A stretch of DNA of 64,000 bases, from positions 14,198,248 through 14,262,247 of the forward strand of contig NC_090418.1 of assembly GCF_036365525.1 (NCBI RefSeq), read 5' to 3'. Below, piece after piece: positions 14,981-64,000 of the stretch. This DNA is from Heterodontus francisci (Eukaryota). A program made the position numbers and the translations under genes. The notes under the pieces are model-generated. The model did not search any database. It saw only the letters and a program-made list of their open reading frames with translations, and was not told the DNA's origin. Position 1 is the first letter of the stretch. The number at the start of each line of letters is the position of its first letter.

Positions 14981-15528
14981 AATTTACCTCGTCTAAATGG
15001 CTTTGTCAGGGGAAATTTTCCAGATTTCCACTGCGCATTGACTGAATCGGATCGAAATCATGACTATTAAGAACACAACAATAATTTGATTGACATCAGT
15101 GAATGAGAGCTCACATCCATGGAACACAGGTCACAATCAAATATACATGCTGAGAAAATAGAAATAATTGCACAAACTGAAAAAAGACAGAAAGAAAGGG
15201 AGAGATAAAGCATAACGAATTTTGAAGCAAAGAAAGGATTAAAGAAGGAAGGAAGGGAAAAAAGAAAGAAGGAAGGGAGGAAAGAAAGAAAGAAAGAAAA
15301 AAAGGAAGAAAGAAAGAAGGAAGAACTCGCATCTATTGACACTAAACGGAAAATCCGGTCATGCAAAACACTTGACTGCCAGTGAAGTACCTTTCCCATA
15401 TATTCACGGTTGCAGTCACGCTTGCGATATAAGTAATGTCATACAATAAATTTCTGGACGTGCAGACTCAGATATTACATGCTGCTAAACTCCAGTTACT
15501 GAAGTACCAGTTCCAGGTAGCAACTTAC

Positions 15529-22616: not shown

Positions 22617-22974
22617 TTTTTAAAAATTCATTCATGGGATGTGGGCGTTGCTGGCTAGGCCAGCATTTATTGCCCATCCCTAATTACCCTAACTGAGTGG
22701 CTTGCAAGGCCATTTCAGAGGGGATGTAAGAGTCAACCACATTGCTGTGGGTCTGGAGTCACATGTAAGCCAGACCAGGTAAGGATAGCAGATTTCCTAT
22801 TCGAAAGGAGATCCGTGAACTTTATGGGTTTTGCAACAATCGACAATGGTTTCATGGCCATCATTAGACTAGCTTTTTAATTCCAGATTTATTAAATCCC
22901 CATGTCCCCAAAGCAATACCCTGGGTCTCTAGGTTACTAGTCCAGTGACAGCACCACTACGCCACCGCCTCTCC
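22617..22974 (-). mobile_element. tRNA-headed SINE sharing head, body and tail with LINE-A
   Basis: Minus strand GGAGAGGCGGTGGCGTAGTGG..caagccactcagtt joined to agggtaattagggatgggcaataaatgctggcctagccagc..atgaatgaa. Confidence 0.9.
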
Positions 22975-24276: not shown

Positions 24277-24856
24277 GTGAGGTATCAGCTGGGAAGGTGA
24301 GTTTCAGCTTCAAGTAAATTACCTTTTGTTTTAGCGGACCAGGCGACTGCTGGGTAAGTAAACCTACATATTTGGGCCGTTTAAAATAACTTACCTTTTG
24401 GTGCAGCAGCTTTTTCTGAAGCAGCGCTAGTGCGAGCGAGGTATCAGCTGGAAAGGTAAGTTTCAGCTTAAAGTAAATTACCTTTTGTTTCGACGGACCA
24501 GGGGACAGCTGGGTAAGTAAACCTATATATTTGGGCAGTTTAAAATAACTTACCTTTTGTTGCAGCAGCTTTTTCTGAAGCAGCGATAGTGCGAGCGAGG
24601 TATCAGCTGGGAAGGTGAGTTTCAGTTTAAAGTAAATTACCTTTTGTTTCGGCGGACCAGGGGACTGCTGGGTAGGTAAAACTATATATTTGGGCAGTTT
24701 AAAATAACTTACCTTTTGTTGCAGCAGCTTTTTCTGAAGCAGCAATAGTGCGAGCAAGGTTTCAGCTGGGAAGGTGAGTTTCAGCTTAAACTAAATTACC
24801 TATTGTTCGGCGGACCAGGGGACTGCTGGGTAAGTAAACCTATATATTTGGGCAGT
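24277..24856 (+). repeat. 159-bp tandem monomer array (~3.6 copies) forming the CR1 5' end
   Basis: gaggtatcagctgg recurs at 24279, 24438, 24597 and (variant) 24756. Confidence 0.95.
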
Positions 24857-27314: not shown

Positions 27315-28760
27315 GTGGAACAGGCTGATATGCTTGAACAAGTTGAGGTTAAGAGGGAGGATGTGCTAGAAATTTTGAATATGAGGATAGATAAGCCCCC
27401 GGGGCCAGACGGGATATACCCAAGGATATTATGGGAAATGAGGGAAGAGATGGCCGCGCCTTTGGCGATGATCTTTGCATCTTCACTGTTCACTGGAGTA
27501 GTACCGGATGATTGGAGGGTGGCAAATGTTGTTCCCTTGTTCAAGAAAGGGAATAGGGATAACCCTGGGAATTATAGACCAGTCAGTCTTACGTTGGTAG
27601 TGGGAAAATTATTGGAGAGGATTCTGAGAGACAGGATTTATGATTATTTGGAAAAGCATAGTTTGATTAGAGATAGTCAGCATGGCTTTGTGAGGGGCAG
27701 GTCATGCCTCACAAGCCTTATTGAATTCTTTGAAGATGTGACAAAACACATTGATGAAGGAAGAGCAGTGGATGTGGTGTATATGGATTTCAGCAAGGCC
27801 TTTGATAAGGTTCCCCATGGTAGGCTCATTCAGAAAGTAAGGAGGCATGGGATACAGGGAAAGGTGGCTGTCTGGATACAAAATTGGCTGGCCCATAGAA
27901 GTCAGAGGGTGGTTGTAGATGGAAAGTATTCAACATGGAGCTCGGTGACCAGTGGTGTTCCGCAGGGATCTGTTCTGGGACCTCTGCTCTTTGTGATTTT
28001 TATAAATGACTTGGATGAGGAAGTGGAAGGCTGGGTTAGCAAGTTTGCCGATGACACGAAGGTTGCTGGAGTTATGGATAGTGTGGAAGGCTGTTGTAGT
28101 TTGCAACGGGACATTGACAGGATGGATAGCTGGGCTGAGAAGTGGCAGGTGGTGTTCAACCTGGAAAAGTGTGAAGTGATTCATTTTGGAAGGTCGAATT
28201 TGAATGCAGAATACAGGCTTAAAGACAGGATTCTTGGTAGTGTGGAGGAACAGAGGGATCTTGGGGTCCATGTCCATAGATCGCTCAAAGTTGCCGCCCA
28301 AGTTGATAGGGTTGTTAAGAAGGCGTATGGTGTGTTGGCTTTCATTAACAGGGGTATTGAGTTTAAGAGCCACGAGGTTATGCTGCAGCTCTATAAGGCC
28401 CTGGTTCGACCACACTTGGAATATTGTGTTCAGTTCTGGTCGCCTCATTATCGTAAGGATGTGGAAGCTTTAGAGAGGGTGCAGAGGAGATTTACCAGGA
28501 TGCTGCCTGGACTGGAGGGCATGTCCTACGAAGAAAGATTGAGGGAGCTAGGGCTTTTCTCATTGGAGCAGAGAAGGAAGAGTGGTGACTTGATCGAGGG
28601 GTGCAAGATGATGACAGGCATAGATAGAGTGGATCGTCAGAGACTTTTTCCCAGGGTGGAATGGGCTGTCACCAGGGGGCATAATTTTAGTGTTATTGGA
28701 GGAAGGTTTCGGGGAGATGTCAGAGGTAGGTTCTTTACACAGAGAATGGTGGGTGCGTAG
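27315..28760 (+). pseudogene. CR1 ORF2 reverse transcriptase segment (longest open piece, 481 aa)
   Basis: Complete RT motifs, but separated from the APE domain by stops/frameshifts and ending in a premature stop. Confidence 0.85.
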
Positions 28761-29620
28761 AATGCACTGCCAGCGGTGGTAGAGAAGCAGATACATTAGG
28801 GGCATTTAAGCGACTCTTGGATAGCAGAATGAAGGGTTGGTAATTGCTTAGATCTTAGAGTAGGTTAAAGGTTCGGCACAACATCGTGGGCCGAAGGGCC
28901 TGTACTGTGCTGTACTGTTCTATGTTCTATGGAACCTCATGGCCAGGCATGTCCCCCACTCTACCATCACCACTAAGCCAGGAGACCAACCATGGTTCAA
29001 CGAAGAGTGCTTGAGGGCATGTCAGGAGCAGCACCAGGCATGCTTCAAAATGGGGTGGCAATCTGGTAAAGCTACAAAGCAGGAATACCTGTGCACCAGA
29101 CTGCTTAAGCAGCTTGCGACAGACAGAGCTAAGTGATCCCATGACACACGTATCAGATATAAGATCTGCAGTCCTGCTACATTCCGCCGTTAATGGTGGT
29201 GGACAATTAAACAACCAACTGGAGCAGGTGCCTCCACAAAAGTCCCCATCTTCAATGATGGGGGAGCCCAGAACATCAGTGCAGAAGATAACACTGAAGC
29301 ATTTGCAACAAACTTCAGCCAGAAGTGCAGAGTTGATAATCCATCTCGGCCTCCTCCTTAAGTCGCCAGCATTACAGATGCCAGACTTCATCCAATTCGA
29401 TTCCCTCTGCATGATATCAAGAAACGACTAAGGCACTGGACACTGCAAAGGCTACCAGCCTGACAATATTCTGGCAATAGTCCTGAAGATCTGTGCTGCA
29501 GACGTTGCTGCACCCCAGCCAGGCTGTTCCACTACAGCTACAACACTGCAATCTAACCGGCAATGTCCTGTACACAAAATGCACGACAATTCTAACCCAG
29601 CCAAATACCGACCAATCAGT

Positions 29621-31045
29621 AATAAAACAAGAAATGCTTGAACCACTCAGCAGGTCTGGCAGCATCTGTGAAAAGAGAAGCAGAGTTAACATTTTGGGTC
29701 AGTGACCCTTCATCGGAACTGACAAATATTAGAAAAGTCACAGGTTATAAGCAACTGAGGTGGGGGTGGGGCAAGAGATAACAAAGGAGGTCTAGATTGG
29801 ACCAGGCCACATAGCTGACCAAAAGATCACGGAGCAAAGGCAAACAATATGTTAATGGTATGTTGAAAGACGAAGCATTAGTGCAGATTAGGTGTTAATA
29901 CACTGAATATTGAACAGCAGCAAGTGCAAACCTGAAAAAAAACAACAGTGTGTAAGTAAACTGAACAAACTAAGATGAAATGAAATAAATGCAAAAAGAG
30001 ATTGTAAAACATGTAAAAAAGAATGTAAAAAAAAAGGAATAAAAAGATAACTAAAAATGAAAGTAAAATGGGGGGCTGTCATGCTCTGAAATTATTGAAC
30101 TCAATGTTCTGTCCAGCAGGCTGCAGTGTGCCTAATCGGCAGATGAGATGCTGTTCCTCGAGCTTGCGTTGATGTTCACTGGAACACTGCAGCAATCCCA
30201 GGACAGACATGTGAGCATGAGAGCAGGGGGGGGTGTTGAAATGGCAAGCAACTGGAAGCTCAGGGTCCTGCTTGCGGACTGAGCTGAGATGTTCCTCAAA
30301 GCGGTCACCCAGTCTGCGCTTGGTCTCCCCAATGTAGAGGAGACCACACTGTGAGCAGCGAATACAGTATACGACGTTGAAAGAAGTACAAGTAAATCGC
30401 TGCTTCACCTGAAAGGAGTGTTTGGGGCCTGGGACAGTGAGGAGAGAGGAGGTAAATGTGCTGGTATTACACCTCCTGCGATTGCAGGGGAAGGTGCCAT
30501 GGGACGGGGACGAGGTGGTGGGTGTAATGGACGAGTGGACCAGGGAGTCGCGGAGGGAATGATCCCTTCAGAATGCTGACAGGGGAAGGGAGGGAAAGAT
30601 GCGACTGTTAGTGGCATCACGCTGGAGGTGGCGAAAATGGCGGAGGATGATCCTTTGGGTATGGAGGCTGATGGGGTGAAAAGTAAGGACAAGGGGAACC
30701 CTGTCATGGTTCTGGGAGGGAGGGGAAGGGGTGAGGGTAGAGGTGCGGGGAATGGGCCAGATACGGTTGAGGGCCCTTACAACCACAGTGGGGGGAAAAC
30801 CTCGGTTGAGGAAAAAGGAGATCATATTAGAGGCACCGTCATGGAGTGTAGCATCATCAGAGCAGATGCGACGGAGACGGAGAAACTGGGAGAATGGAAT
30901 GGAGTCCTTACAGGAGGTAGGGTGTGAAGAAGTGTAGTCGAGGTAGCTGTGGAAGTCGGTGGGCTTATAATGGATATTAGAGGACACCCTATCCCCAGAG
31001 ATGGAGACAGAGAAGTCAAGGAAGGGAAGGGAAGTGTCAGAGATG
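29621..31045 (-). mobile_element. 5'-truncated Penelope-like element (RT C-terminus + GIY-YIG)
   Basis: HYKPTDFHSYLDYTSSHP; VVYCIRCSQCGLLYIGETKR; 14-bp TSD ACCGACCAATCAGT at 29607 and 31046. Confidence 0.93.
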
Positions 31046-32747
31046 ACCGACCAATCAGTCTTCTCTCAACCATCAGTAAAGTGATGGAAGGTGCCCTCAA
31101 CAGTGCCATCAAGTGGCACTTGCTTCGCAATAACCTGCTCAGTGATGCTCAGTTTGGTGTCCACCAGGGCCATTCAGCTCCTGACCTCATTACAGCCTTG
31201 GTTCAAACACGGACAAAAGAGCAGAACTCAAGACGTGAGGTGAGAGTGACTGCCCTTGACATCAAGGCAGCATTTGACCGAGTATGGCATTAAGGAGCCC
31301 TAGCAAAGTGGTCAATGGGAATCAGGGGTGAGGGGAGGGGGAACACTTTGCTGGTCGGAGTCATAGCTCGCACACAGGACGATGGTTGTGTTTTTTTTTT
31401 GCAGATCAATCATCTGAACTGCAGGACATAACAGCAGGAGTTCCTCGGCGTAATGTCCCAGGCCCAATCATCTTCAGCTGTTTCATCAATGACTTTCCTT
31501 CAATCATAAGGTCAGAAGTGGGGATGTCAGCTGATAATGGCACAATGTTCAGCATCATTCACGGCTCCTCAAATACTGAACAAAGACTGGACAGTATCCA
31601 GGCTTGGGCTAATAAGTGGCAAGTGACATTCGTGTCACACAAGTATATTCTCCAACAACAGAGAAACAAACCATCTTCCCTTGAAATTCAATGGCATTAC
31701 TATTCCTGAATCGCCCATTATCAACATCCTAGGGGCTACCATTGACCAGAAACTGAACTGGAGTAGCCCTATAAATACCGTAGCTACAGGGAAGGTCAGA
31801 GGCAGAAATTGAACTGGAGTAGCCATATAAAAACCATATCTACAAGAGCAGGTCAGAGGCTAGGAATCCTGCGGCAAGTAACTCACCTCCTGACTCCCCA
31901 AAGCCTGTCCACCATCTACAAGGCGTAAGTCAGGAGTGTGATGGAATACTGTCCACTTGCCTGGATGGATGCTGCTCCAACAACACTCCAGAAGCTCGCT
32001 GGATTTACACACCAACTACAATTATTTACTCCATCCACCACTGATGCACGGTGGTAGCAGTGTGTACCATCTACAGGATGCACTGCAGCAATGCAACAAG
32101 GCTCCTTAGACAGTCCCTTCCAAACATGCGACCTCTATCAACTGGAAGGACAAAGGCAGCATATGCATGGGAACACCACCACTTGCAATTTCCACTTCAC
32201 GTCACTCACCATCCTGACTTGGAACTATATCGCCATTCCTTCACTGTCACTGGGTCAAAATCCTGGAACTCCCTTCCTAACAGCATTGTGGGTGTACCGA
32301 CCTCACATGGACTGCAAAGGTTCAAGAAGGCAGCTCACTACCTCCTCCTCAACGGAAAGTAGGGACGGGCAATATATGCTGGCCTAGCCAACGAAGCCCA
32401 CGTCCCACGAATGAATAAAAAGTCCCGATGAAGGGACTTTATCAATGCTTTTTTGAAAGTCCATATAAATGACATCCATAGACATCCCACTACTTTTGTC
32501 ACCTCTTCAAAAAATCCAATCAGCTTCGTCTAGGATGACCTAGCCTTTATAAATCCACGCTGGCTCCCTGATTAGCTGAAGAATTTCTAGTTGTTTAGTT
32601 GCCCTATCAACGAAGAACAAAGGACAAAGAACCTGTGCCGATCTTGATGCCTTCCTAAACTAAAACATTCTGCACTTCCCCTGCCCATATCCCTCTATTC
32701 CCTTCCTATTCATGTATTTGTCAAGATAACTCTTAAACGTCGCTATT

Positions 32748-33350
32748 CAGAAATTGAACTGGAGTAGCCGTATAAAAACCATATCTACAAGAGCAGATCA
32801 GTGGCTAGGAATCCTGCGGCGAGTAACTCACCTCCTCACTCCCCAAAGGCTGTCCACCAGCTACAAAGTACAAGTCAGGAGTGTAATAGAATACTCTGCA
32901 CTTGAAGCTCCAATAACACTCAACAAGCTCGACACCATCCAGGACAAAGCAACCTGTTTGATGGCACCGCATCCACGACCTTCAAGATTCACTCCCTGCA
33001 CCAGTGACACACAGTTGCAGCAGTGTGTATCATTTGCAAGATGCACTACAGCAACGCATCATGTCGTTAGACAGATCCTTCCAAAGCCGCCACTTCTACC
33101 ATCTTAAAGGACAAGAGAAGAAGGTGCATGCAAACACCACAACCTACAAGTTCCCTTCCATGCCACAAAACATCCTGACTCGGACGTATGTCGCTGGGTC
33201 AAAATCCTGGAAATCCCTTCCTAGTACCTACTCCACAGACTACAGCGGTTCAAGAAGGTGGCTTACCATCACATACTCAAGGGCAATTATAAATGGGCAA
33301 TAAATGTTGTCCTAGCCAGCTAAACCCAAATCCACTGAATGAAAAAAAAA
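32748..33350 (+). mobile_element. LINE-A 3' fragment
   Basis: NWSSRIKTISTRADQWLGILRR; tail gggcaataaatgttgtcctagccagc + A run. Confidence 0.85.
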
Positions 33351-37069: not shown

Positions 37070-40000
37070 ATAATTTATTCTTTAACGGTATATGGGCGCC
37101 GCTGGCTAGGCCAACAGTTATTGTCCAACCCTAATTGCCCTCGAGAAGATGGTGATGATCCATCTTCTTGAACCGCTGAAGTCCATATGGTGTTAGTACA
37201 ATCATCGTGCTATTAGGAAAGGAATTCCAGGATTTTGACCCAGCAACAATGAAGGAAAAGCAATATAGTTCCTAGTCAGGATAGTGTGCAGCTTGGAGGG
37301 GAGCTTGCAGGTGGCGGTCCTCCCATGCATCTGGTGCCCTTGGCCTTCTAGGTACAGAGGTAACGGGATTGTAAGATGCTGTCGAAGGAACCCTGGTGAA
37401 TTTCTGCAGTACTTCTTGTGCATGGTACACAATACTACCTCTGGGCATCAGTAGTTGAGGGAGTGAATGTTAAAAGTGGTCGATGGGTTGACAATCAAGC
37501 GGGTTGCTTTTTTCCTGGACGTTGTCAAGCTCCTTGGTGATCTTGGAGCTGCACCTGTCCAGGCAAGTGAGGGTATTCCATCATATCACTTCTCTTCCAG
37601 GAATGCCTACCTTGAAGAAGTTCTGCTCTTCTCTCCAATGGGATTTTCGTTTGTCCCTTTACCTTGTTTACCTTCATTGCTTTCTAGTTCCCTCCTTGTG
37701 TTTGATAAAGTGTTTACCAAAACTCGTTTTCACAGGCACATCTCCTTCCTCAGTGACTGCCTCTGGCTCCGACCTATTCCACTTGGATTCCAACTGCATT
37801 TTCATCCATCATGTTTTGAATCCACCCAGGAATACAGATTCTCTGAGAAATACAACGTTCCTCGGACTGCTACTCTCGCCACATCCTGAGATCCACACTC
37901 AGTGCTGAGCGCCGCAACATGCACACACTGAACCACTGTCTCTAGCAGCACCGCCTCACCTTATCTCAAAGCTGTTCTACTCCGCAGTTTCATTTCATCT
38001 TTTGTCTCATCCGACGCATTAACAAAAAGCTTTTTTTCTTCCTTTCAGATGTCAAGGAACACAAGCTCCAGTAGCTGATGGGGACGAATGCTCCTCCGGA
38101 TCCTCCTTCCGCTTCACTTCCCTCTGAGCCCACCCCTTCTGATCTGACCCCTTGCCATGTGTTCACTATACCCTCTGATCGCCCCCTCTCTGATGCTGAA
38201 AGTTCTGTACTCAGCAAAGGTCTCACTTGTATCCAGCTCAATGAATTTCGCCCACAGCATTACTTTGAGCTCTTCTTCCGTCGCCTCCACCTCCGGGATC
38301 ACTTCTTTGACCAGGAGTCCTCCCCGCAAGCAGTGGAACCATTCACCCACCTCCAGCATTCTCCCTCTACCTTGACCACTCCCCCTGGCCTCTTACCCGC
38401 TCTTGATCTCTTCATTGAAAACTATCGGTGAGACATTGGTCATCTCAAGTTCTCTGCCCCCTCACTCACTCCAACCTGTCCCCCTCTGAACCTGAGGCAC
38501 TCCGTTCTCTCAGGTCTAACCCCGTCATGGTCATCAAATCTGCAGGCAAGGGTGGTGTTTCCTGGTCCTTACTGCCTCCTCTTTACTATGGACGTCCAAT
38601 CGCTCTACACCTCCATCCCCCACCAGGATGGTTTATGGACTCTCCGCTTCTTCCCTGAACAGAGGCCCAACCAGTCCCCATCCGCCACCACCCTCCTCTG
38701 CCTGGCTGAACTTGTTCTCACATTGAACAACCTCTCCTTCAACTCCACTCACTTCGTTCAAGTAAAAGGTGTTGCTATGGGTACTCGCATGGGTCCTAGT
38801 TATGCCTGTCATGTTGTGGGATATGTCGAGCATTCTTTGTTCCAGTCCTACTCAGGCCCCCTCCCCCAACTCTTTTTCCAGTACATTGATGACTGTATCG
38901 GTGCCATTTCCTGCTCCCGCCAGGAACTGGAAAACTTTATCAACTTTGCTTCCAATTTCCACCCTTCTCTAACCTTTACATGGTCCATCTCCAACACTTC
39001 CCTTCCCTTCCTCGACTTCTCTGTCTCCATCTCTGGGGATCGGTTGTCTACTAATATCCATTATAAGCCCACCGACTCCCAGAGCTGCCTGGACTACACT
39101 TCTTCACCCCCTACCTCCTGTAAGGGCTCCATTCCATTCTCCCAGTTTCTCCATCTCCGATGCATCTGCTCTGATGATACTACCTTCCATGACGGTGCTT
39201 CTGATATGACCTCCTTTTTCCTCAACCGAGGATTCCCTCCCACTGTTGTAGACAGGGCCCTCAACCGTGTCTGGCCCATTTCCCGCACCTCTACCCGCAC
39301 CCCTTCCCCTCCCTCCAAGAACCGTGACAGGGTTCCCCTTGTCCTCACTTTCCACCCCATCAGCCTCCATATACAAAGGATCATCCTCCACCATTTCCGC
39401 CACATCCAGCGTGATTCCACTACCAAATGCATCTTCCCCTCCCTTCCCCTGTCCGCATTCTGAAGGGAGCATTCCCTCCGTGACACCCTGGTCCACTCCT
39501 CCATTACCCCCACCACCTTGTCCCCGTCCCATGGCACCTTCCCCTGCAATCGCAGGAGGTGTAATACCTGTCCATTTACCTCCTCTCTCCTCACTATCCC
39601 AGGCCCCAAACACACCTTTCAGGTGAAGCAGCGATTTACTTGTACTTCTTTCAATGTAGTATACTGTATTCGCTGCTCACAAAGTGGTCTCCTCTCCACT
39701 GGGGTGACCAAACGCAGACTGGGTGACCGCTTTGAGGAACACCTCCGCTCAGTCTGCAAGCAGGACCCTGAGCTTCCGGTTGCTTGCCATTTCAGCACTC
39801 CCCCCTGCTCTCATGCTCACATCTCTATCCTGGGCTTGCTGCAGTGTTCCAGTGAACATCAACGCAAGCTCGAGGAACAGCATCCCATTTACTGATTAGG
39901 CACACTAAAGCCTGCCAGACTGAACATTGAGTTCAATAATTTCAGAGCATGACAGTCCTCCCATTTTACTTTCATTTTTAGTTATTTCTCCTTTTTTCCC

Positions 40001-41066
40001 TTTTTACATTTTTTACAATTTTTTATGTTTATTTCATTTCATCTTTGTTTGTTAAGTTTGCTTACCCACTGTTTTTTTCATGTTTGTACTTGCTGCTGTT
40101 CAATCTCAGTCCGTTAACACCCTATCTGTATCAATGCTTCGTCTTTCAACACACCATTAACATATTGTTTGCCTTTGCTCCATGACATTTTTGTCAGCTA
40201 TGTGGCCTTATCCAATCTACACCTTCTCATTTGTTACCTCTTTCCCCACCCCTGCCTCACTTGCTTATAACCTTTGACATTTATAATATTTGCTAGTTCG
40301 GAAGAAGGGTCACTGACCCGAAACGTTAACTCTGCTTCTCTTTCCATAGATGCTGCCAGACCTGCTGAGTGGTTCCAGCATTTCTTGTTTTTATTTCAGA
40401 ATTCCAGCATCCGCAGTATTTTTCTTGTATTCCATCATACTCCTGACTTGTGCCTTGTAGGTGGTGGACAGGCTTAGGGAAGTCAAGAGGTCAAGTATTC
40501 GCCTTAGAATTCCTATCCTCTGACCTGCTCCTGTAGACACAGTATTGATTTGGTCTGTCCAGTTCAGTTTCTGGTCAATGGCAACCCCGAGGATATTGAT
40601 ACTCGGGGATTCAGCAATAGGAATGCCATTTAACGTCAGGGGGAAATGGTTAGATTCTCACTTCTTTGAAATGATCGTTGTCTGCTACTTGAGTGGCGCG
40701 AATGTAACTTTCCACACATCAGCCCAAGTCTGAATGTCATCTGGGTCTTGCTGCAGATCGACAGGGATTGATTCTCTATCTGAGGAGTTGCAAATGGCGC
40801 TGAACATTGTGCAATTATGAACGAAAATCCCCACTTCTGACCTTATTATGGAGGAAAGGTCATTGTTGAGCAGCTGAAGATGGTTGGGCTTAGGACACTA
40901 ACCTGAAGAACTCCTGCAGGGATGTCCTGGGACTGAGAAAATTGACCTCCAACAACCATAACCAGCTTCCTTTGCGCTAAGTATGACTCCAACCAATGGA
41001 GAGGTTCCCCCCGATTCCCATTGACTTCAATTTTGTAGGGCGCCTTCATGCCATGCTCACTCAAAA
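37070..41066 (-). mobile_element. LINE-A 3' portion (~1.1 kb), split by a PLE
   Basis: Tail at 37070-37140; LHWLESYLAQRKLVMVVGGQ..PTIFSC at 40850-41000; rejoined across the TSD. Confidence 0.85.
37586..40426 (+). mobile_element. Near full-length Penelope-like element (Neptune-type, Cys linker + GIY-YIG), inactivated
   Basis: LSDAESSVLSKGL, MDVQSLYTSIP, GVAMGTRMGPSYA, YIDD, CNRRRCNTC, VVYCIRC; internal RT deletion near 38560; 13-bp TSD GTATTCCATCATA at 37573 and 40427. Confidence 0.93.
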
Positions 41067-45696: not shown

Positions 45697-47545
45697 TTTT
45701 TATTTTTTTATTTAGAGATACAGCACTGAAACAGGCCCTTCGGCCCACCGCATCTGTGCTGACCATCAACCACCCATTTATACTAATCCTGCACTAATCC
45801 CACCACATCCCAACATTCCCCTACCACCTACCTATACTAGGGGGCAATTTATAATGGCCAATGTACAGCATTGTGGGGAAAGTCTTTGCTCGAGTCGCTC
45901 TGAACAGGCTCCAGAAGCTGGCCGAGCGCGTCTACCCTGAGGCACAGTGTGGCTTTCGTGCAGAGAGATCGACTATTGACATGCTGTTCTCCCTTCGTCA
46001 GATACAGGAGAAATGCCGTGAACAACAGATGCCCCTCTACATTGCTTTCATTGATCTCACCAAAGCCTTTGACCTCGTCAGCAGACGTGGTCTCTTCAGA
46101 CTACTAGAAAAGATCGGATGTCCACCAAAGCTACTAAGTATCATCACCTCATTCCATGACAATATGAAAGGCACAATTCAACATGGTGGCTCCTCATCAG
46201 AGCCCTTCCCTATCCTGAGTGGTGTGAAACAGGGCTGTGTTCTCGCACCCACACTTTTTGGGATTTTCTTCTCCCTGCTGCTTTCACATGCGTTCAAATC
46301 CTCTGAAGAAGGAATTTTCCTCCACACAAGATCAGGGGGCAGGTTGTTCAACCTTGCCCGTCTAAGAGCGAAGTCCAAAGTACGGAAAGTCCTCATCAGA
46401 GAACTCCTCTTTGCTGACGATGCTGCTTTAACATCTCACACTGAAGAATGCCTGCAGAGTCTCATCGACAGGTTTGCGTCTGCCTGCAATGAATTTGGCC
46501 TAACCATCAGCCTCAAGAAAACGAACATCATGGGGCAGGATGTCAGAAATGCTCCATCCATCAATATTGGCGACCACGCTCTGGAAGTGGTTCAAAAGTT
46601 CACCTACCTAGGCTCAACTATCACCAGTAACCTGTCTCTAGATGCAGAAATCAACAAGCGCATGGGTAAGGCTTCCACTGCTATGTTCAGACTGGCCAAG
46701 AGAGTGTGGGAAAATGGCGCACTGACACGGAACACAAAAGTCCGAGTGTATCAGGCCTGTGTCCTCAGTACCTTGCTCTACGGCAGCGAGGCCTGGACAA
46801 CGTATGCCAGCCAAGAGCGACGTCTCAATTCATTCCATCTTCGCTGCCTTCGGAGAATACTTGGCATCAGGTGGCAGGACTATATCTCCAACACAGAAGT
46901 CCTTGAAGCGGCCAACATCCCCAGCTTATACACACTACTGAGTCAGCGGCGCTTGAGATGGCTTGGCCATGTGAGCCGCATGGAAGATGGCAGGATCCCC
47001 AAAGACACATTGTACAGCGAGCTCGCCACTGGTATCAGACCCACCGGCCGTCCATGTCTCCGTTATAAAGACGTCTGCAAACGCGACATGAAATCGTGTG
47101 ACATTGATCACAAGTCGTGGGAGTCAGTTGCCAGCATTCGCCAGAGCTGGCGGGCAGCCATAAAGACAGGGCTAAATTGTGGCGAGTCGAAGAGACTTAG
47201 TAGTTGGCAGGAAAAAAGACAGAGGCGCAAGGGGAGAGCCAACTGTGCAACAGCCCCAACAAACAAATTTCTCTGCAGCACCTGTGGAAGAGCCTGTCAC
47301 TCCAGAATTGGCCTTTATAGCCACTCCAGGCGCTGCTTCACAAACCACTGACCACCTCCAGGCGCGTATCCATTGTCTCTCGAGATAAGGAGGCCCAAAA
47401 GAATGTACCTACAAGTGGTGGGAGGAAACCGGAGTACCCGGTGAAAACCCACGCAGACACAGGGAGAACTTGCAAACTCCACACAGTCAGTACCCAGAAT
47501 TGAACTGTGAGGCTGCGGTGCTAACCACTGCGCCACTGTGCCGCC
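45697..47545 (-). mobile_element. HE1-like SINE split by an RTE insertion (45697-45866 and 47402-47545)
   Basis: Tail and head both match the SINE at 14637. Confidence 0.88.
45867..47401 (+). mobile_element. Young 5'-truncated RTE-clade LINE with uninterrupted RT ORF (to 47351)
   Basis: PEAQCGFRAERSTIDM, FIDLTKAFDLV, GVKQGCVLAPTLF, LFADD, YGSEAW, C-terminal CxxC..H; 7-bp TSD AATGTAC at 45860 and 47402. Confidence 0.95.
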
Positions 47546-52704: not shown

Positions 52705-55700
52705 TGGAGAGGCGGTGGTGTAGTGATACTGTCATTGGACTAGTAACCCAGAGACCCAGGGTATTGCTCTGGGGATATGTGTTCAAATCCCAACACAGCA
52801 AAAGGTGGAATTTGAATTCAATTAATAGCTCTGGAATTAAAAAATCTAGTCTAATGATGGCCATGAAACCATTGTCAATTGTTGTAAAAACCCACCTGGC
52901 TCACTAAAGTCCTTTAGGGAAGAAAATCTGCTGTCCTTAGCTGGTCTGGCCTACATGTGAGTCCAGACCCACAGCAATGTGGTTGACTCTTACATGCCCT
53001 CTGAAGTGGCCGAGCAAGCCACTCAGTTGTATCGAACCACAACAAAGTCAATAAAAAGGAATGAAACTGGTTGGAACACCCGGTGTCGACCTAGCAGGGG
53101 CAGGCATTCAGTGCAGGAATCCCCTGTGGCTGTCCCCCTCTCTGCCAAGTATGCAATTTTGGATACTGCTTGGCAGGACGGCCTATCAGGGGAAAACAAC
53201 AGCAGCAGCCAGAGCAGTGGCACCACGGCTGGCTCTGTTGTTCAACAGGGAGGGACAAAGCACAGAAGAGCAATAGTTATAGGGGGCTCTAAAGTCAGGG
53301 TCGCAGAAGGGCGCTTCAGAGTGAAAGAGACTCCAGGATGGTATGGTGCCTCCCTGGCGGCTGGGTCAAGGATGTCTCTGAATGGGCAGGGGGCATTCTG
53401 AAGGGGGAGTGCGAACAGTACATATTAGTACCAATGACATAGGCAGAAAGAGTGACGAGGTCCTGCAGGTGGAGTTCAGGGAATTAGGTAGTAAGTTAAA
53501 AACAACAGGACCTCTAGGGATGTAATCTCGGGATTGCTCCCTATGCCACGTGCCAGTGAGGCTAGAAATAGGAAGATAGTGCATCTAAACACGTGGTTAA
53601 ACAGCTGGTGTAGGAGGGAGGGTTTCAGATATCTGGATCATTGGGATCTATTCCGGGATAGGTGGGACCTATACAAGAAGGACGGGTTGCATCGAAACTG
53701 GAGGGGCACAAATATCCTGGCTGCGAGGTTTGCCAGTGTAACTCGGGAGGGTTTAAACTAGTATGGCAGGAGGATGGGAACCAGAGTGGTAGGTCAGCAG
53801 GTGAAATAACTGAGGGGGAACTAGTGAATAAGGCTAGTAAGACTGACAGAAATAGCAGGCAGAGAGATGTTGCAGAGCACAGCGGGACTGGTGGTCTGAA
53901 GTGCATTTGTTTCAATGCGAGAAGTATAACAGGTAAGGCAGATGAACTTATAGCTTGGAGTAGTACTTGGAACTATGATATTGTTGCTATTACCGACACT
54001 TGGTTGATGGAAGGACAGGATTTACATCTAAACCTTCCAGGATTTGGAAGCTTCAGGCGGGAGAGAGGGGGATGTAAAAGGGGTGGGGAGTTGCGTTACT
54101 GGTTAAGGAGAATATCGCAGCTGGACTGCAGGAGGACACCTCGGAGGGCTCATGCAGCAAGGCAATATGGGTTGAGCTCAGGAATAGGAAGGGGGTTGTT
54201 ACTACAGGCCTCCCAACAGCCGGCGGGAGATAGAGGAGCAGACAGATTTTGGAAAGCTGTAAAACCAACAGGGTTGTTGTGGTGGGTGATTTTAAAGTCC
54301 CCTATATTGACTGGGACTCACTTCGTGCGAGGGGCTTGAATGGGGCAGAATTTGTAAAGAGCATTCAGGAGGGCTTCTTGAAACAATATGTAGATAGTCC
54401 AACTAGGGATGGGGCCGTACTGGACCTGGCATTGGGGAATGAGCCCGGCCAGGTGGTCGAAGTTTCAGTAGGGGTGCATTTCGGGAACAGTGACCATAAT
54501 TTCGTAAGTTTTAAGGTACTTGTGGATAAGGATAAGAGTAGTCCTCGGGTGAAGGTGCTAAATTGGGAGAAGGCTAATTATAACAATATAGGCAGGAACT
54601 GAAGAATTTAAATTGGGGGCGGCTGTTTGACGGTAAATCAACATCTGACATGTGGGAGTCTTTCAAACGTCAGTTGATTAGAATCCAGGACCAGCATGTT
54701 CCTGTGAAGATGAAGGATAAGTTTGGCAAGTTTCTTGGAAGCTTGGATAACGAGGGATATTGTGAGCCTAGTCAAAAAGAAAAAGGAAGCATTCGTAAGG
54801 GCCAGAAGGCTGGGATCAGATGATGCCCTTGAGGAATATAAAGATAGTAGGAAGCAACTTAAGCAAAGAGTCAGGAGGCCTAAAAGGGGTTATGAAAAGT
54901 CATTGGCAAACTGGATTCAGGAGAATCCCAAAGCTTTTTATACGTATATAAAGAGCAAAAGTGTAGTCAGGAAAAAGGTTGGCCCACTCAAGAGCAGAGG
55001 AGGGAATCTATGCGTGGAGCCAGAGGAAATGGACGAGGTACTAAATGAGTCCTTTGCATCACTATTCACCAAAGAGAAGGACTTTGTGAATGATGAGTCT
55101 AGGGAAGGGAGTGTAGCTAGTCTGGGTCATGTCGTTATCAAAAAGGAGGAGGTGTTGGGCGTCTTGCAAAGCATTATGGCAGATAAGTCCTCAGAACCTG
55201 ATGGCAAATGCTCCAGAATATTGAGGAAGGAAAAGGAGGCAATTGCTGGGGCCATGACAGAAATCTTTGTATCCTCATTGGCTACAGGTGAGGTCCCAGA
55301 GGTCTGGAGAATAACCAATGTTGTTCCTTTGTTTAGGAAGGATAACAAGGATAATCCAGGAAATTACAGGCCGACGAGCCTTACGTCAGAGGTAGGGAAA
55401 TTATTGGAGAGGATTCTTAGGGACAGGATTTACTCCCATTTGGAAACAAATGGACTTTTGAGCGAGAGGCAGCATGTTTTTGTGAAGGGGAGGTCGTGTC
55501 TCACCAGCTTGATTGAGTTTTTTGAGGAAGTGACGAAGATGATTGATGAAGCAAGGGCAATTAATGTTGCCTACATGGACTTCTTAAAGCCTTTGACATG
55601 GTCCCTCATGGCAGACTGGTATAAAAGGTGAAGTCACACGGGGTCAGAAGTGAGCTGGCAAGATGGATACAGAACTGGCTCGGTCATAGAAGACAAAGAG

Positions 55701-58700
55701 TAGCAGTGGAATGGTGCGTTTTTGAATGGAGAGCTGTGATTAGTGGTGTTGCACAGGGATCAGTGCAGGGACCTTTGCCGTTTGTATTATATATAAATGA
55801 TTTGGAGGAAAATGTAGCTGGTCTGATTAGTAAGTTTGCGGACGACACAATGATTGGTGGAATTGCGGATAGTGATGAGGATTGTCAGAGGATACAGCAG
55901 CATACAGATCGGTTGTAAACTTGCGCAGAGAAATGGCAGATGAAGCATAATCCGGACAAATGTGAGGTAATGTATTTTGGAAGGTCTAATACAGGTGGGA
56001 AGTATACAGTAAATGGCGAACCCTTAGGAGTATTGACAGGGAGAGAGATCTGGGCGTACAGGTCCACAGACCACTGAAAGTGGCAACGCAGGTGGATAAG
56101 TTGGTCAAGAAGGCACACGGCATGCTTGTCTTCATCGGTCGGGGCATAGAGTATAAAAAATTGGCAAGTCATGCTGCAGCTGTACAGAACGTTATTTAGG
56201 CCACACTTGGGATATTGCATACAATTCTGATTGCCACACTAGCAGAAAGATGTGGAGGCTTCGGAGAAGGCACAGAGGAGGTTTACCAGGATGTTTCTTG
56301 GTCTGGAGGGTATTAGCTATGAGGAGAGGTTGGATAAACTCGGATTGTTTTCACTGGAACGACGGAGATGGAGGGGCGACGTGATAGAGGTTTACATATT
56401 TATGTGTGGCATGGACAGAGTGGATAGTCAGAAGCTTTTTCCCAGGGTGAAAGAGTCATTTATAAGGGAACATATGTTTAAGGTGCGAGGCGCAAAGTTT
56501 AGCGGAGATGTGCGAGTCAAGATGTTTGCACAGAGGGTGGTGAGTGCCTGGAACTTGCTGCTGGGAGAGGTTGTGGAAGCAGGTACGTTTAAGAGGGATC
56601 TTGACAAACACATGAATAGGATGGTAATGGAGGGATACGGACCCCGGAAGTGCGGAAGGATTTAGTTTAGACAGGCATCATGATTGGCGCAGGCTTGGAG
56701 GGCCGAATGGCCTGTTCCTGTGCTGTACTGTTCTTTGTAGGCACCAGAACTGACAACGGCAAACCGAACCCTGTCGACCCTACAACGTGCTCCTTACTCA
56801 CATCTGGGGGCCTCTGCCATAGATGGGAGAGCTGTCCCACAGACTAGTCAAGCAACAACCTGAAATAGTAATACTCACGAATCATACTTGAAAGACAATG
56901 TCCCAGAGACTGCCATCACCATCTTCAAATATGTCCTGTCCCACCGACAGGACAGACCCAGCAGAGATGGCAGCACGATGATATACAGTCGGGAGGGAGT
57001 TGCCCTGGGAGTCCTCAACATCGACTCTGGACCCCATGCGGTTTCATGGCATCCGATCAAACATGGACATGGAAACCTCCTGCTGATTACCACCTACCAC
57101 CCTCCCTCAGCTGATGAGTCCGTACTCCTCCATGTTGAACAGCACTTGGAGGAAGCACTGAGGGTGGCAAAGGCACAGAATTTACTCTGGGTGGGGGACT
57201 TCAATGTCCATCACCAAAAGTGGCTCGGTCGCACCACTACTGTCCGAGCTGGCCGAGTCCTAAACGTCAAATCTGCTAGAATGGGTATGCGACAGGTGGT
57301 GAGGGAACCATAAAGAGGGGAAAACATATTTGACCTCGTCCTCACCAATCTGCCTGCCGCAGATGCATCTGTCCATGACAGTATTGGTAGAAGTGACCAC
57401 CGCACAGTCCTTGTGGAGATGAAGTCCTGGCTTCACATTGAGGACACGCTCCTTCGTGTTGTGTGGTACTACCACCGTGCTAAATGAGATAGATTTCGAA
57501 CAGATCTAGCAATGCAAAACTGGGTATCCATGAGGTGCTGTGTGCCATCAGCAGCAGCAAAATTCTATTCGATCACAATCTGCAAACTCATGGCCCAGCA
57601 TATCCCCCACACTGTCATTACCAACAAGCCAGGAGACCAATCTTGGTTCAATGAAGAGTGCACGAGGGCAAGCCAGGAGTAGCACCAGGCAGACCTCAAA
57701 AATGAGGTGTCAACCTGGTGAAACTACAGAGCAGGACTATCTGCATGCCAACCCTGCGTAAGCAGCATGCGATAGACAGAGCTAATCGATCCCATAACCA
57801 ACTGATCAGATCTAAGCTCTGCAATCCTGCCATATCCAGCCGTGAATGGTGGTGGACAATTAAACACCTAACTGGAGGAGGTGGTTCCACAAATATCCCC
57901 ATCCTCAATGATGGGGGAGCCCAGCACATCAGTGCGAAAGATCAGGCTGAAGCATTTGCAACAATCTTCAGCCAGAAGTGCCGCATTGATGATCCATCTC
58001 CCCAGCTTCACAGATGCCAGACTTCAGCCAATTCGATTCAATCCACGTGATATCAAGAAATGACTGAAGGCACTGGATACTACAAAGGCTATGGGCCCTG
58101 ACAATATTCCGGCCATAGTACTGAAGAGCTGTGCTCCAGAACTACCCATGCCCCGAGCCAAGCTGTTCCAGTATAGGTATGACACTGGCATCTACCCTGC
58201 AATGTGGAAGATTGCTCTGGAATTTCCTGTGCACAAAAAGCAGGACAAGTCCAACCCAGCCAATTACCGCCCCATCAGACTACTCTCACTCATCACTAAA
58301 GTGATGGAAGGTGTCATCAACAGTGCAATAAGATGGCACTTGCTTTACCATAACCTGCTCAGTGACACTCAGTTTGGGTTCCGCCAGGGCCACGCAGCTC
58401 CTGAACTCATTTCAGCCTTGGTTCAAACATGGACAAAAGAGCTGAACTCAAGAGGTGAGATGAGAGTGACTGCCTTTGGCATCAATGCAGTATTTGACCG
58501 AATATGGCATCAAGGAACCCTAGCAAAACTGAGGTCAATGGGAATCAGGGGGAAAACCCTCCACTGGCTGGAGTCATACCTAGTGCAAAGGAAGATGTTT
58601 TTGGTTGTTGGAGGTCAATCATCTGAGCTCGAGGATATCACTGCAGGAGTTCCTCAGGGTAGTGTTCCTAGGCCCAACCATCTTCAGCTGCTTCATCAAT

Positions 58701-59603
58701 GACCTTCCTTCAACCATAAGGTCAGATGTGGGGATGTTCGCTGACTCCTCAGATACTGAAGCAATCTGTGTAGAAATGCAGCAAGATCTGGACAATATCC
58801 AGGCTTGGGATGATAAGTGGCAAGTAACATTCGCGCCACAGAAGTGCCTGGCAATGACCATCTCCAATAAGAGAGAATCTAACCATCTCCCCTTGACAGT
58901 CAATGGCATTACCATCCCTGAATCCCCCACTATCAACATCTTAGGGGCTACTATTGACCAGAAAGTGAACTGGAGTAGCCACGTAAATACTGTGGCTACA
59001 AGAGCAGGTCAGAGGCTAGGAATCCCGCGGCGAGTAACTCACCTCCTGACTCCCCAAAATCTGTTCACCATCTACAAGGCACAAGTCAGGAGTATGATGG
59101 AATACTCTCCACTTGCCTGGATGGGTGGAGCTCCAACAATACTCAAGAAGCTCGACAACATCCAGGACAAAGCAGCCCGCTTGATTGGCACCCCATCTAC
59201 AAACATTCACTCCCTCCACCACCACTGCACAATCGCAGTAATGTGTACCATCTCCAAGATGCAATGTAGCAATGCACCAAGGCTCCTTAGATAGCATCTT
59301 CCAAACCTGCGACCTCTACCAACTAGAAGGACAAGAGCAGCAAATGCATGGGAACAACACCACCTGCAAGTTTCCCTCCAAGTCACACACCATACTGACT
59401 TGGAACTATATAGCCATTCCTTCACTGTCACTGGGTCAAAATCCTGGAACTCCCTTCCTAACAACACTGTGGATGTACCTAACCCACATGGGCTCCAGCA
59501 GTTCAAGAAGGCATCTCACCACCACCTTCTTAAGGACAATTAGATATGGGTAATAAATGCTGACCTGGCCAGCAACGATCGCATCCCATGAATGGGAAAA
59601 AAA
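52705..59603 (+). mobile_element. LINE-A copy 2 (tRNA-headed CR1-group APE-RT element, ~3.25 kb net), interrupted by a CR1
   Basis: A box 52716, B box GTTCAAATCC 52781, APE (VGDFNVHH), RT (GPDNIP, YRPI, QFGFR, VPQGS, MFAD), tail + A run; absent from the paralogous site ~6345. Confidence 0.92.
53095..56737 (+). mobile_element. 5'-truncated CR1 LINE (partial ORF1 esterase + decayed ORF2)
   Basis: SPVAVPLS, WDLYKKDGLH, FNARS, GNYRP, KFADDT; tail ctgtgctgtactgttctttg; host LINE-A rejoins as gacctag/gcacc. Confidence 0.92.
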
Positions 59604-59759: not shown

Positions 59760-60818
59760 TTATTTTTATTCCTGTGTGGGTGGTAAGTGTCACTAAGAGA
59801 GCCAGAATTTGTCGTCCAACCCTAAATGCCTTTGTGAAGATCGCGGTGAGCCACCTTCTTGAACTACTGCATTCTTGCTGGTATAAGTACACCCAGAGAT
59901 CTGTTAGGGTGTGAGTTCATGGTTTTTGCCCAGTGACAGTGAATGAACACCAATATAGTTCCCAGTCAGGAATGTGTGCGTCTTGCAGGAAAACTTTAAG
60001 GTGGTGGCTTCTCCATACATCTGCTGGTCTGGTCCTTCTAGCTACTGGATGTCGTAGGTTTGGAATGTGCTGTTGAGAGACGTTTGTCGAGCTCCTGAAT
60101 CATGTATATTGTACACAATAGTACGACCGTGCTCTGGTGGTGGATGGTGTGAATGTTTAAGGTGTGCCACTCAAAGGGGCTCCTTTGTCCTGGATGGTGT
60201 CAGGCATGGGAGACTATTCCACTACACTCCTTGCTTGTGTCTTGCAGATGATAGACAGGCATTGCGGTGTCAGGAGGTGAGTTACTTGCCACATTATTAG
60301 GATCCTTTGACATGCTGTTGTAGCCACAGCATTTATATGACTGGTTCAGTTACGTTTCTAGTCAGAGGTAACTCTTCAGGATGTTCATGGTGGGGAATTC
60401 AGCGGTGGGAAAGCCATTGAATGTCAAGTGGAGATGGTTAGATTCCCTTTAGTTGGGGATGGTCATTGCCTGGAACTTGTATGATGTGATTGTTAATTGC
60501 AACTTATCAGCCCAAGCCTGAAAGTTGTCCAGGTCTTACTGCACACTGCTTCAATATCTGAGGAGTTGGGAATGGTGCTGAACATTGTGCAGACATCCAC
60601 ACTTCTGATCTTATTATGGAAGTAAGGTCATTGATGAAGCAGGTGAAGATGCTTGGACAAGCATACTATCCTAAGGAACGTCTGCAGTGATGTCCTGCGA
60701 TTGAGATGATTGACCTCCAACAACCACAACAACCTTTCTTTGCATTAGGTATGACACCATGAATCCCATTGATTCCAGTTTTGCAATGGATCCTTCATGC
60801 CACACTCAGTCAAATGCT
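59760..60818 (-). mobile_element. Old LINE-A 3' portion
   Basis: Reverse complement of LINE-A RT end and tail; paralogue of 37070-41066. Confidence 0.8.
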
Positions 60819-61819
60819 GCATTCCCAATGGTATAAAGTGCATTGTATCTGTTGGATATAATCAATTTCTGTGGCTCCGCGTTCTCCAATTCACTTGGAC
60901 TGCTTTTTACTCTGTACACTGCTGGTCACACTACACCCATTCAGAACCTGGACCCCACTTAAAAGTCTCGCCGAATTCTGCAGCAAAGTGTCCATCTACT
61001 TTTGCCCCTGCCATATGTGCTCCAATGTCTTCAACTGTACAGACTTTGTTGCACGAAACGGTGGAGAAAACATTAATCACCTACCACCTCATGTTTCCAC
61101 TGCAATGATTGAAGATTAACATAGCTGCAGCTGTTTGCCCCTCTGCACCTAATTCTCACATGCACCAAATGTCCAATTTTAGCTCTCTTAACGCTGCACT
61201 CGTTTCATAAACACATTGTGTAAACCATTCTGTGTGTTACAAATGTTCTTTTCTTTATAGACCTTTATGAGTCCCACCGAAGGTGCAAATGCTTCGAATC
61301 CTGCTTCCTGCTCAGCTAAAGCTGTACTTTGTTTTCAGTTAACTGTCACTGACAGAAAGTTTCTATTAACTGTGTAGCTCATCAAGCTTGCAGATTCTTG
61401 TGACAAGTTTTAAAGCTGCAAATCAAATTCTCAATGTCAAAACTCAATATCAGTTTGAGAAAAACTTACCCAGGAACTGTCACTTGCATAAATTTCCCTA
61501 ATTCAGCACTCTGGTCACGATAAAAACTTTCCACGACCACTCTGTCAAGAGTTGTTTTCTTCGATTATCCCTTCTCCCACATTGCTTCTCACAATTGCTT
61601 TACTTCCCACACTGGGTGACAGAACCGTGACACAAACAATAGACGCATCCCTGAAACACTGTTTCTGATATAAAACTGTGTGAAATAACAACTGAGCATG
61701 TAATTCTAAAGTAGCCCGAAGAGGAATTTAATCTATCAAACCTAACTATAAACGTTAATATTGCACGAATACAAATATTCCCTGCAATCAAGGACTCTCC
61801 TGATGAAAACACAGAAACC

Positions 61820-62466: not shown

Positions 62467-62851
62467 TTTTTAGATTAGATTAGATTAGAGATACAGCACT
62501 GAAACAGGCCCTTCGGCCCACCGAGTCTGTGCCGAACATCAACCACCCATTTATACTAATCCTACACTAATCCCATATTCCTACCAAACATCCCCACCTA
62601 TTCCTACCAAACATCCCCACCTATTCCTATATTTCCCTACCACCTACCTATACTAGTGACAATTTATAATGGCCAATTTACCTATCAACCTGCAAGTATT
62701 TTGGCTTGTGGGAGGAAACCGGAGCACCCGGAGAAAACCCACGCAGACACAGGGAGAACTTGCAAACTCCACACAGGCTGTACCCGGAATCGAACCCGGG
62801 TCCCTGGAGCTGTGAGGCTGCGGTGCTAACCACTGCGCCACTGTGCCGCCC
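62467..62851 (-). mobile_element. Young full-length HE1-like SINE
   Basis: Intact A box TGGCGCAGTGG and B box GGTTCGATTCC; (TCTAA)n tail; internal 23-bp duplication. Confidence 0.93.
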
Positions 62852-63242
62852 AATGTGGAGCTCAGTAGCACAATTGGTGAGATATAAACACTTATAAATA
62901 CTTCAGTGTATCTTACTCTGTGTCCAAAGCTGAGAGACAGCTTTATGTGTTAATAAAGAGTATAGTTGAGTGAGTGGTCTCTTAGATCAAGCAGGGCAAA
63001 AGACAAGAGTTTGTGGGCAGTGGATTTTGGGGTGAGGCATGGTGGAAGAAAGCAGTCATTCGTTAACATTTTACGGACTGTAAGGAATGCAGAATGAATG
63101 AGAGAGGGAGAGAGGGAAAGAGAGAGAGCGAAAGAAGCAATGCTGACCAAGCCATTATGGAAGAATGTGGCCATGATTCTGATTAAAATTGAACCAAACA
63201 TAAGATAATATACAAGTTGTATTAACAGACTATTAACATAAT

Positions 63243-63557
63243 GGGGCAGCACAGTGGCGCAGTGCAGCTTCATAGCGCAGGGACCCAGGTTCAATTCTGG
63301 GTCCTGCCTGTGCGGAGTTTGCAAGCTCTCCCTGTATCACGTGGGTTTTCACTGAGTGCTCCCGCTTCCTCCCACAGCCAAAGACTTGCAGGTTGATAGG
63401 TAAATTGGCCATTGTAAATTGCCCCTAGTGTAGGTATCTGATAGGGAATATGGGATTACTACAGGATTACTATAAATGGGTGATGTTGGTCGGCACAGAC
63501 TCAGTGGGCCGAGTGGCCTGTTTCAGTGCTGTATCTCGAAATAAAAATAAATAAAAA
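63243..63557 (+). mobile_element. HE1-like SINE
   Basis: Same head, body and tail as 14637; A-rich end. Confidence 0.88.
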
Positions 63558-63559
63558 AT

Positions 63560-64000
63560 CAGAGTATTAAGAAGCACTGCCAAAACTGGAATCAATGATA
63601 ATGTGGGGGAAACATCTCCGCTGGTTGGAGTCATACCTAGTGCAAAGGAAGATAGTTGTTGTTGTTGGAGGTCAATCATCCAGGACATTAGTGCAAGAAT
63701 TCCTCATGGTAGTGTCTTAGACCCTACCATCTTCAGCTGCTTCATCAATGACCTTCCTTCAATAATAAGGTCAGAAATAGGGCTGTTTGCTGATGATTGC
63801 AAAATGTTCAGTACCATTCACGACTTCTCCGAGAGTGAAGCAATCCATGTAGAAATGCAACAAGACCTGGACAATAGACAAATTTGGGGTGACAAGTGAC
63901 AGTTGCAACACACAAGGGCCTGGCAATCACAATCTGAAACAAGAGAAAATCTAAGTAACTCCCCTTGACATTCAATGGCATTAAGATCGATGAATCAGCC
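63560..64000 (+). mobile_element. LINE-A RT fragment (runs off window)
   Basis: PHGSVLDPTIFSCFINDLP..GLFADDC. Confidence 0.85.

Follow-up and report, generated by a model that had tools for sequence, protein, structure and literature searches.

Can an element that encodes its own reverse transcriptase serve as a template for RNA polymerase III (Pol III)? In the working division of such elements, long interspersed elements (LINEs) are coding units of RNA polymerase II (Pol II), and short interspersed elements (SINEs) belong to Pol III and encode no protein. The question is raised by LINE-A, a repeat family present in a 64,000-nt stretch of the Heterodontus francisci genome (contig NC_090418.1, positions 14,198,248 to 14,262,247, forward strand; hereafter the window). 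A first-pass annotation had noticed that the sense strand of LINE-A is almost devoid of runs of four or more T (T4+), the Pol III terminator, and had proposed selection for Pol III read-through. Our analysis indicated that LINE-A is likely transcribed as one 3.3-kb Pol III RNA from a tRNA-like head at its 5′ end; such transcription would explain the terminator loss on the sense strand. This reading is carried by promoter boxes at a fixed 5′ position, a strand-specific loss of terminators, erosion of that state after insertion, and absence of the effect in control elements (mild in RTE).

Structure of LINE-A

Copy 2 of the window (plus strand) was found in two parts. The 5′ part (52706–53094; element positions 1–388; 92% identical to the family majority sequence) comprises the tRNA-like head, a non-coding body of approximately 230–250 nt and the start of the long frame; it includes the A box (52716–52726, decayed in this copy) and the B box (52780–52790, one mismatch) of an internal Pol III type 2 promoter. 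Copy 2 is then split by an unrelated element with similarity to CR1 (53095–56737, plus strand), which is not part of LINE-A: the head part stops at element position 388 and the body restarts at 386. The remainder consists of a decayed single open reading frame (ORF; 56738–59543), corresponding to the frame of the majority sequence and encoding an apurinic/apyrimidinic endonuclease (APE) and a reverse transcriptase (Pfam PF14529/PF03372 and PF00078, respectively), and of a short 3′ untranslated region (59544–59603) in which AATAAA precedes a short A tail by about 40 nt. The first-pass annotation, which had placed LINE-A at 56738–59603, was right about the body but missed the 5′ head on the other side of the CR1.

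Thirty-nine genomic copies were collected with a body-only query, and 32 of these were aligned together with window copy 2 (n = 33), seven short or interrupted copies being left out. The aligned copies were 91–96% identical to a majority sequence of 3,290 nt, which contains one frame of 975 codons from stop to stop, opening at position 309, with the catalytic motifs of APE and reverse transcriptase, and which ends in AATAAA followed by a short A tail. Copies are dispersed and have variable 5′ truncations, a fixed 3′ end with an A tail and no long terminal repeats (LTRs). By its domains and copy structure, LINE-A is an autonomous APE-type non-LTR retrotransposon.

No ORF1 was found in the LINE-A majority sequence, which thus lacks the two-ORF organisation by which vertebrate CR1 is recognised; the CR1 of this genome has an ORF1 of 311 aa. 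The nearest match to a named protein was from a ray (71% identical over part of the length). The reverse transcriptase branched, with weak support (87/74), with lepidopteran proteins and apart from the two-ORF CR1 of the genome, in a comparison that included no named reference; these lepidopteran relatives probably belong to the CR1-Zenon group. CR1-Zenon is used as a clade name in the accessible part of PMC11481361.

The tRNA-like head and its linkage to the ORF

In the majority sequence, the A box (TGGCGTAGTGG) occupies positions 11–21 and the B box (GGTTCAAATCC) positions 75–85. The B box of an older subfamily reads GGTTCGAATCC, and both boxes are canonical in both subfamilies. ARAGORN predicted a tRNA-Thr at the head of three out of ten genomic copies and no tRNA in the decayed copies of the window, while Rfam gave nothing at threshold and a T-arm-like match at the B box below it. 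The 5′ end is sharp and lies 10 nt ahead of the A box: among the 39 copies, 17 start at base 1–2, three at base 9, 12 within bases 13–322 and seven further in, and none of the 39 revealed an alternative 5′ end or upstream sequence common to copies. Two further, partly overlapping sets had 20 of 29 and 15 of 19 starts within bases 1–12.

Exact matches to the head–ORF junction numbered 3,015 and 2,340 for the two subfamilies, giving at least 5,300 junctions in all, and 18 of the first 20 junctions among the matches listed continue into the ORF. The older subfamily (1,882 exact matches to its diagnostic motif) differs at 111 positions and keeps the head, a 977-codon frame, the same six TTT and zero terminators. 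All 30 element bins and the SINE joint were present in four other organisms, and in two of them assembled contigs span the head–ORF junction. A recurrent chance template switch between a SINE and a LINE was considered and is unlikely, since the identical junction occurs in thousands of copies of two subfamilies. The head belongs to the mobile unit.

Loss of Pol III terminators from the sense strand

As the first-pass annotation had stated, each of the two copies in the window has a single T4+ run: TTTTT at 58598–58602 (plus strand) in copy 2 and a private run of ten T at 31391–31400 in copy 1. Both lie in one segment (element ~2262–2273) that has no run in the majority sequence, and of the 33 aligned copies window copy 2 alone carries one at this place; its TTTTT is a private mutation, absent from the majority sequence and the 32 other copies. 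The same segment had been reported as free of runs at 63651 and in the minus-strand copy near 40950, which held, although the latter has a private T4 a few bases on. Fifteen of the 33 copies have no T4 at all, and the 23 T4 runs in the alignment are scattered, six of them at a single TTT beside a CpG. The runs thus reflect decay after insertion. Equally borne out were the abundance of A4+ runs (12 in each window copy) and the richness of the neighbouring CR1s in T4+ (23 and 12 runs). The majority sequence has zero T4+, the state that had been expected of a consensus under read-through selection, and holds six TTT vs. 44 AAA, 50 CCC and 40 GGG.

The proposed comparison with synonymous-codon-shuffled sequences did not single out T4 (0 vs. 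2.06 expected, P = 0.087). With neutral Phe usage the expectation rose to 2.7 (P = 0.047), and the probability of zero T4 was 1% in a base-composition model and 19% in a first-order Markov model. Codon content predicted the count of A4 in the LINE-A ORF (10 vs. 10.1) and that of T4 in CR1 (11 vs. 14.2). For TTT, the ORF had four occurrences, all of them Phe codons, vs. 12.8 expected (0 of 10,000 permutations as low), and four vs. 10.0 under CpG stratification with codon usage kept (P = 0.001).

The active motif set was then defined as T4+, T3VT, TVT3 and T2[AC]T2. According to the accessible text of Orioli et al. (PMC3141230), T3VT, TVT3 and T2VT2 are partial human Pol III terminators, T2GT2 is almost inactive and isolated T3 is inactive; Vassetzky et al. 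(PMC8466645, available portion) gave termination of 50% at TCTTT and 65% at TTTT. The ORF contains no active motif, vs. 6.0 expected (P = 0.0005) or 3.9 under CpG stratification (P = 0.006). Its antisense strand is normal (24 vs. 27.0). The head also has none (0 vs. 2.7, P = 0.04), and the whole element has only two windows with four T in five positions, both T2GT2. Active motifs were regained after insertion, with a mean of 1.9 per genomic copy. The depletion signal is real and sits in TTT and the T-rich pentamers. The loss of T runs in LINE-A and its direction were confirmed, and T4 alone was the wrong statistic: the proposal of selection for Pol III read-through failed on the T4 count but gained from the loss of the whole terminator set on the sense strand.

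T runs of 2–10 between the element end and the A tail were present in 29 of the 89 copies scored from the 3′ ends of 150 copies, a pattern also known from T+ SINEs of mammals as they age. Lengthening of T runs at the tail boundary is ascribed to post-insertion slippage in B2 in the available portion of PMC8466645, and the tail T runs were therefore not counted as proof of Pol III termination.

Control elements

Majority sequences of 16 CR1 and 16 RTE copies served as controls. CR1 ORF2 showed no loss of active motifs (28 vs. 28.3), and RTE, of nearly equal base composition to LINE-A, has 26 TTT and five T4. The observed/expected ratio of T–T at codon junctions was 0.19 in LINE-A, 1.06 in CR1, 0.64 in RTE, 0.77 in a Penelope-like element and 1.09 in a host G-protein-coupled receptor gene. 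A metagenome scan gave 80 loci, of which 57 distant relatives with an open frame of at least 450 aa were tested and 23 dropped. Their junction ratios were 0.62–1.39 and their motif observed/expected ratios at least 0.70 (median 0.97); relatives with a T content of 0.19–0.22 have 16–21 TTT and 3–7 T4. ARAGORN, run on 45 loci, predicted no tRNA; some of these contigs may stop short of the 5′ ends, and a box-pattern scan of the 57 relatives gave one match, 5.4 kb upstream. All 57 carry at least two T4 runs, in keeping with the expectation that relatives without a detected tRNA head would not avoid them.

Short forms of LINE-A

A SINE short form of LINE-A lies in the window at 22626–22974 (minus strand), in which the final 65 nt of the LINE follow head and body without interruption. 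The majority sequence of 25 such copies (387 nt) is 100% identical to element positions 1–322 plus 3226–3290. The main junction occurs 325 times; other breakpoints lie at ~3156, 3186, 3196 and 3222 on the 3′ side and at 322–346 on the 5′ side. These varied breakpoints fit a headed LINE that underwent internal deletion repeatedly. Alternatively, a truncated LINE may have captured a SINE head, followed by exchange. A spliced origin was rejected, as the skipped parts lack GT–AG ends. Like SINE2, LINE-A has at its 5′ end a tRNA-derived head that carries A and B boxes; the 387-nt form is also short and non-coding as SINE2 are, and the 3,290-nt coding element is not. The fold of the short form is more stable than that of shuffled sequences (z −3.6), which identifies no internal ribosome entry site.

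The body downstream of the head was compared with known SINE domains. It gave no blastn match to a SINE of this genome that we take to be an HE1-like V-SINE, and no match of significance to the Deu-type SINE that this genome also has. Two published Deu motifs were absent from it at up to three mismatches. Identity with the Deu domain or SacSINE1 was rejected, the body being unlike the published alignment, and it was likewise unlike Meta and UCON3 when compared by eye with printed alignments (all PMC7245038). As judged from these comparisons, the body matches none of the Deu, V, Meta and UCON3 domains tested; since it is not Deu, the paper on SacSINE1 and L2-2_CM does not describe the pair of LINE-A and its SINE. 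Genomic locus L270 (2730–3033, minus strand) holds a true Deu-type SINE; its tail is L2-like, and it differs from the short form of LINE-A.

Transcription and translation of LINE-A

A template made by Pol III, including the variant in which the protein comes from other transcripts, is probable from the sequence features described. For the favoured single 3.3-kb RNA, TFIIIC and TFIIIB would recruit Pol III at base 1, and the transcript would stop once a first T run is reached, within the A tail or beyond it. Source copies that gained a terminator would yield shortened RNA, lacking the 3′ tail on which target-primed reverse transcription depends, and would leave no offspring, and T clusters would be purged. 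SINEs would arise by internal deletion, retaining promoter and tail. Translation of the same uncapped RNA would use a non-AUG start, read-through of an AUG-GCC-UAG or a frameshift from a short overlapping frame. A whole life cycle on the 3.3-kb Pol III transcript, with cap- and AUG-less translation via the structured 5′ body and one-step shedding of SINEs, is possible but a more tentative proposal.

In the long frame the endonuclease motif lies at codon 47, the first Met follows only at codon 210, and no AUG of the frame precedes the endonuclease. The head has nine upstream AUGs, an in-frame AUG-GCC-UAG stands directly upstream of the frame (stop present in 80 of 114 copies), and a 46-codon AUG frame in another phase overlaps the endonuclease start. 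Of the four common variants at 323–345, three are at third codon positions in the long frame, which weakly supports its translation. The T of the stop before the ORF (element 306, window ~53012) varies in 23% of copies vs. a median of 4% at the other T sites, and does so alike in the LINE and the short forms. A subfamily without this stop was considered and rejected: 26 of 114 copies have another first base, but these are spread across haplotypes, and the short forms show the same variation.

Several observations weigh against Pol III transcription from the head as the cause of the T loss. Zero T4 in the ORF is expected 8–9% of the time under synonymous-codon permutation, and under CpG stratification the expectation falls to 0.98 (P = 0.34). 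The active motif set was taken from Orioli et al. after the TTT deficit had been seen. RTE is mildly depleted of active motifs (12 vs. 17.1, P = 0.035), an effect that vanishes with CpG stratification (12 vs. 14.0). The older subfamily is not an independent test, being only 111 substitutions away (~1.5 new motifs expected). The headless controls are distant (27–41% amino-acid identity) and mostly richer in T, and some of their contigs may end before the 5′ end of the relative; searches for a close headless sister in this genome with three diverged copies gave the same family. The majority sequence of the HE1-like SINE, a Pol III-type SINE, holds an internal T4 (six of 12 copies). Finally, T before T at codon junctions (5 vs. 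26 expected) is avoided beyond the TTT effect, with a coefficient of −1.66 (standard error 0.48) after allowing for TTT, and TT is avoided even where no terminator results. Isolated TT and T3 are poor terminators (PMC3141230, PMC8466645, as far as available). T frequency by next base was 53/183 before A, 49/165 before C and 5/54 before T; that T before A is not reduced speaks against ADAR-type editing.

One alternative is transcription by Pol II, from the element's own body or by host read-through, with the head vestigial or of use to the SINE only and TT and TTT lost from another cause; its reverse transcriptase might have a context bias, for instance, or RNA rich in U might be selected against. 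This alternative agrees with an avoidance that sets in with TT and acts more strongly on the first T of a codon-junction pair than inside codons, with AATAAA before the A tail, with the T4 tolerated by the HE1-like SINE and with the general view of LINEs as Pol II units (PMC5786205, available part). We nevertheless consider it rather unlikely: both subfamilies have canonical A and B boxes with a sharp 5′ end 10 nt before the A box, CR1 and the 57 relatives are without such a bias, T before A is unreduced, and the TT count of the head (18 in 322 nt) is near expectation.

A split cycle would keep the Pol III template and supply the protein in trans from separate Pol II transcripts, capped, that contain copies through read-through or in spliced host RNA. 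In its favour are the uncapped state of Pol III RNA, the absence of an AUG before the endonuclease in the frame, the nine AUGs of the head and the stop before the frame; the efficient mobilisation of the deleted forms also shows activity in trans. On the other hand, the intact frame of 975–977 codons linked to the head in both subfamilies is easier to explain if proteins act preferentially in cis, the ORF2 frame of the genome's CR1 likewise opens far before its first Met, and AUG-less translation of ORF2 is known in other LINEs. The split cycle appears improbable.

That low T, scarce Phe codons and CpG decay produce the pattern as a by-product, without special cause, is highly improbable and already largely refuted, for although the ORF has 20% T and 1.8% Phe codons and T4 alone fits chance, the TTT and active-motif deficits survive CpG-stratified permutation and relatives with similar T content keep many TTT and T4.

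Other copies and repeats in the window

The genome around the window (6.0 Gb) is rich in CR1, RTE, Penelope-like and SINE copies. Copy 1 of LINE-A (22985–32421, plus strand) is older (82–87%), also headed, and interrupted by a CR1 (24277–28929) and a Penelope-like element (29624–31045). A 5′-truncated LINE-A fragment lies at 59801–60823 (minus strand) and further old fragments of the family at 32748–33343 (plus), 37077–37583 (minus), 40427–41065 (minus) and 63566–63996 (plus); the old fragments are 74–84% identical to the majority sequence. CR1 has inserted at most 60 nt past the head–ORF junction in two copies (window 53095; locus L278, 1465), and an HE1-like SINE likewise in locus L044, making this region a possible insertion hot spot.

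Copies of the HE1-like V-SINE were located at 62476–62848 (minus strand), 14637–14986 and 63241–63540. All 40 genomic matches among those listed for the RTE at 45860–47410 (plus strand) were ~100% identical, and this family is probably still active. Penelope-like elements at 29624–31045 (minus), 38432–40430 (plus) and 16605–17445 have a reverse transcriptase (weak Pfam match) and a C-terminal frame that is presumably GIY-YIG-like. The CR1 5′ untranslated region at 24276–24856 consists of tandem units of ~160 nt, and an SGNH/GDSL esterase-like domain is present in the ORF1 of that CR1. Two intact 309-aa seven-helix receptor-like frames (3367–4296 and 13255–14184, both minus strand), used as codon control only, lie within a local tandem duplication (1–3326 vs. 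9547–12862, 95%).

Significance and comparison with known systems

A high-copy family that combines a SINE promoter with a LINE ORF, and whose codons are apparently shaped by Pol III termination, breaks the division between LINEs and SINEs. If it is indeed transcribed by Pol III, LINE-A would be a natural multi-kilobase Pol III template or Pol III mRNA, would make the production of reverse transcriptase from an uncapped, AUG-less RNA testable, would let SINEs bearing both a tRNA head and a LINE tail arise in a single step, and would be a missing link between the two classes. It would be categorically new only if Pol III transcription and translation are confirmed. In shark repeat annotation the two parts would be masked separately, the head under SINE and the body under LINE, so that the architecture by itself already matters there. 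No tRNA-headed autonomous LINE was found in the open full-text literature, as far as its text was available (including PMC5753468, PMC3747384, PMC4824008, PMC11481361, PMC10572872, PMC10468316, PMC1845163 and PMC5499810), and motif searches of published supplements gave no match; Repbase, Dfam and subscription journals may hold an entry.

The single-ORF CR1-related LINEs of invertebrates resemble LINE-A in having one APE–reverse transcriptase frame of ~960–990 aa (35–49% identity). They differ from it in that a Met precedes the endonuclease motif by 10–50 residues, T4 and TTT contents are normal and no tRNA head was detected. The tRNA-derived SINEs (SINE2, including the T+ SINEs B2, Dip and Ves) share with LINE-A the A/B-box head, a LINE-type tail, AATAAA before the A tail and T-run lengthening at the tail boundary, seen in 15 of the 89 LINE-A copies scored. 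Unlike SINE2, LINE-A spans 3.3 kb and encodes an endonuclease and a reverse transcriptase of its own, and SINEs cannot encode protein according to the available part of Kojima 2018 (PMC5786205).

Shark tRNA-headed SINEs with a LINE-shared tail are represented by the Deu-SINEs SacSINE1/LmeSINE1 with L2-2_CM and by the V-SINE HE1 with HER1. The body of LINE-A differs from these in being without the published Deu motifs, and the Deu-type and HE1-like SINEs of the genome have other bodies and tails. The bipartite-LINE model, in the accessible text of PMC5786205, also describes short forms in which the two ends of a LINE, 5′ and 3′, are joined, as found here, with RTE, Ingi, Vingi and R2 given as the only sources. 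In that model the tRNA head joins after the deletion and the LINE is a Pol II unit, whereas in LINE-A the autonomous element is already headed and belongs to a clade outside the model's set.

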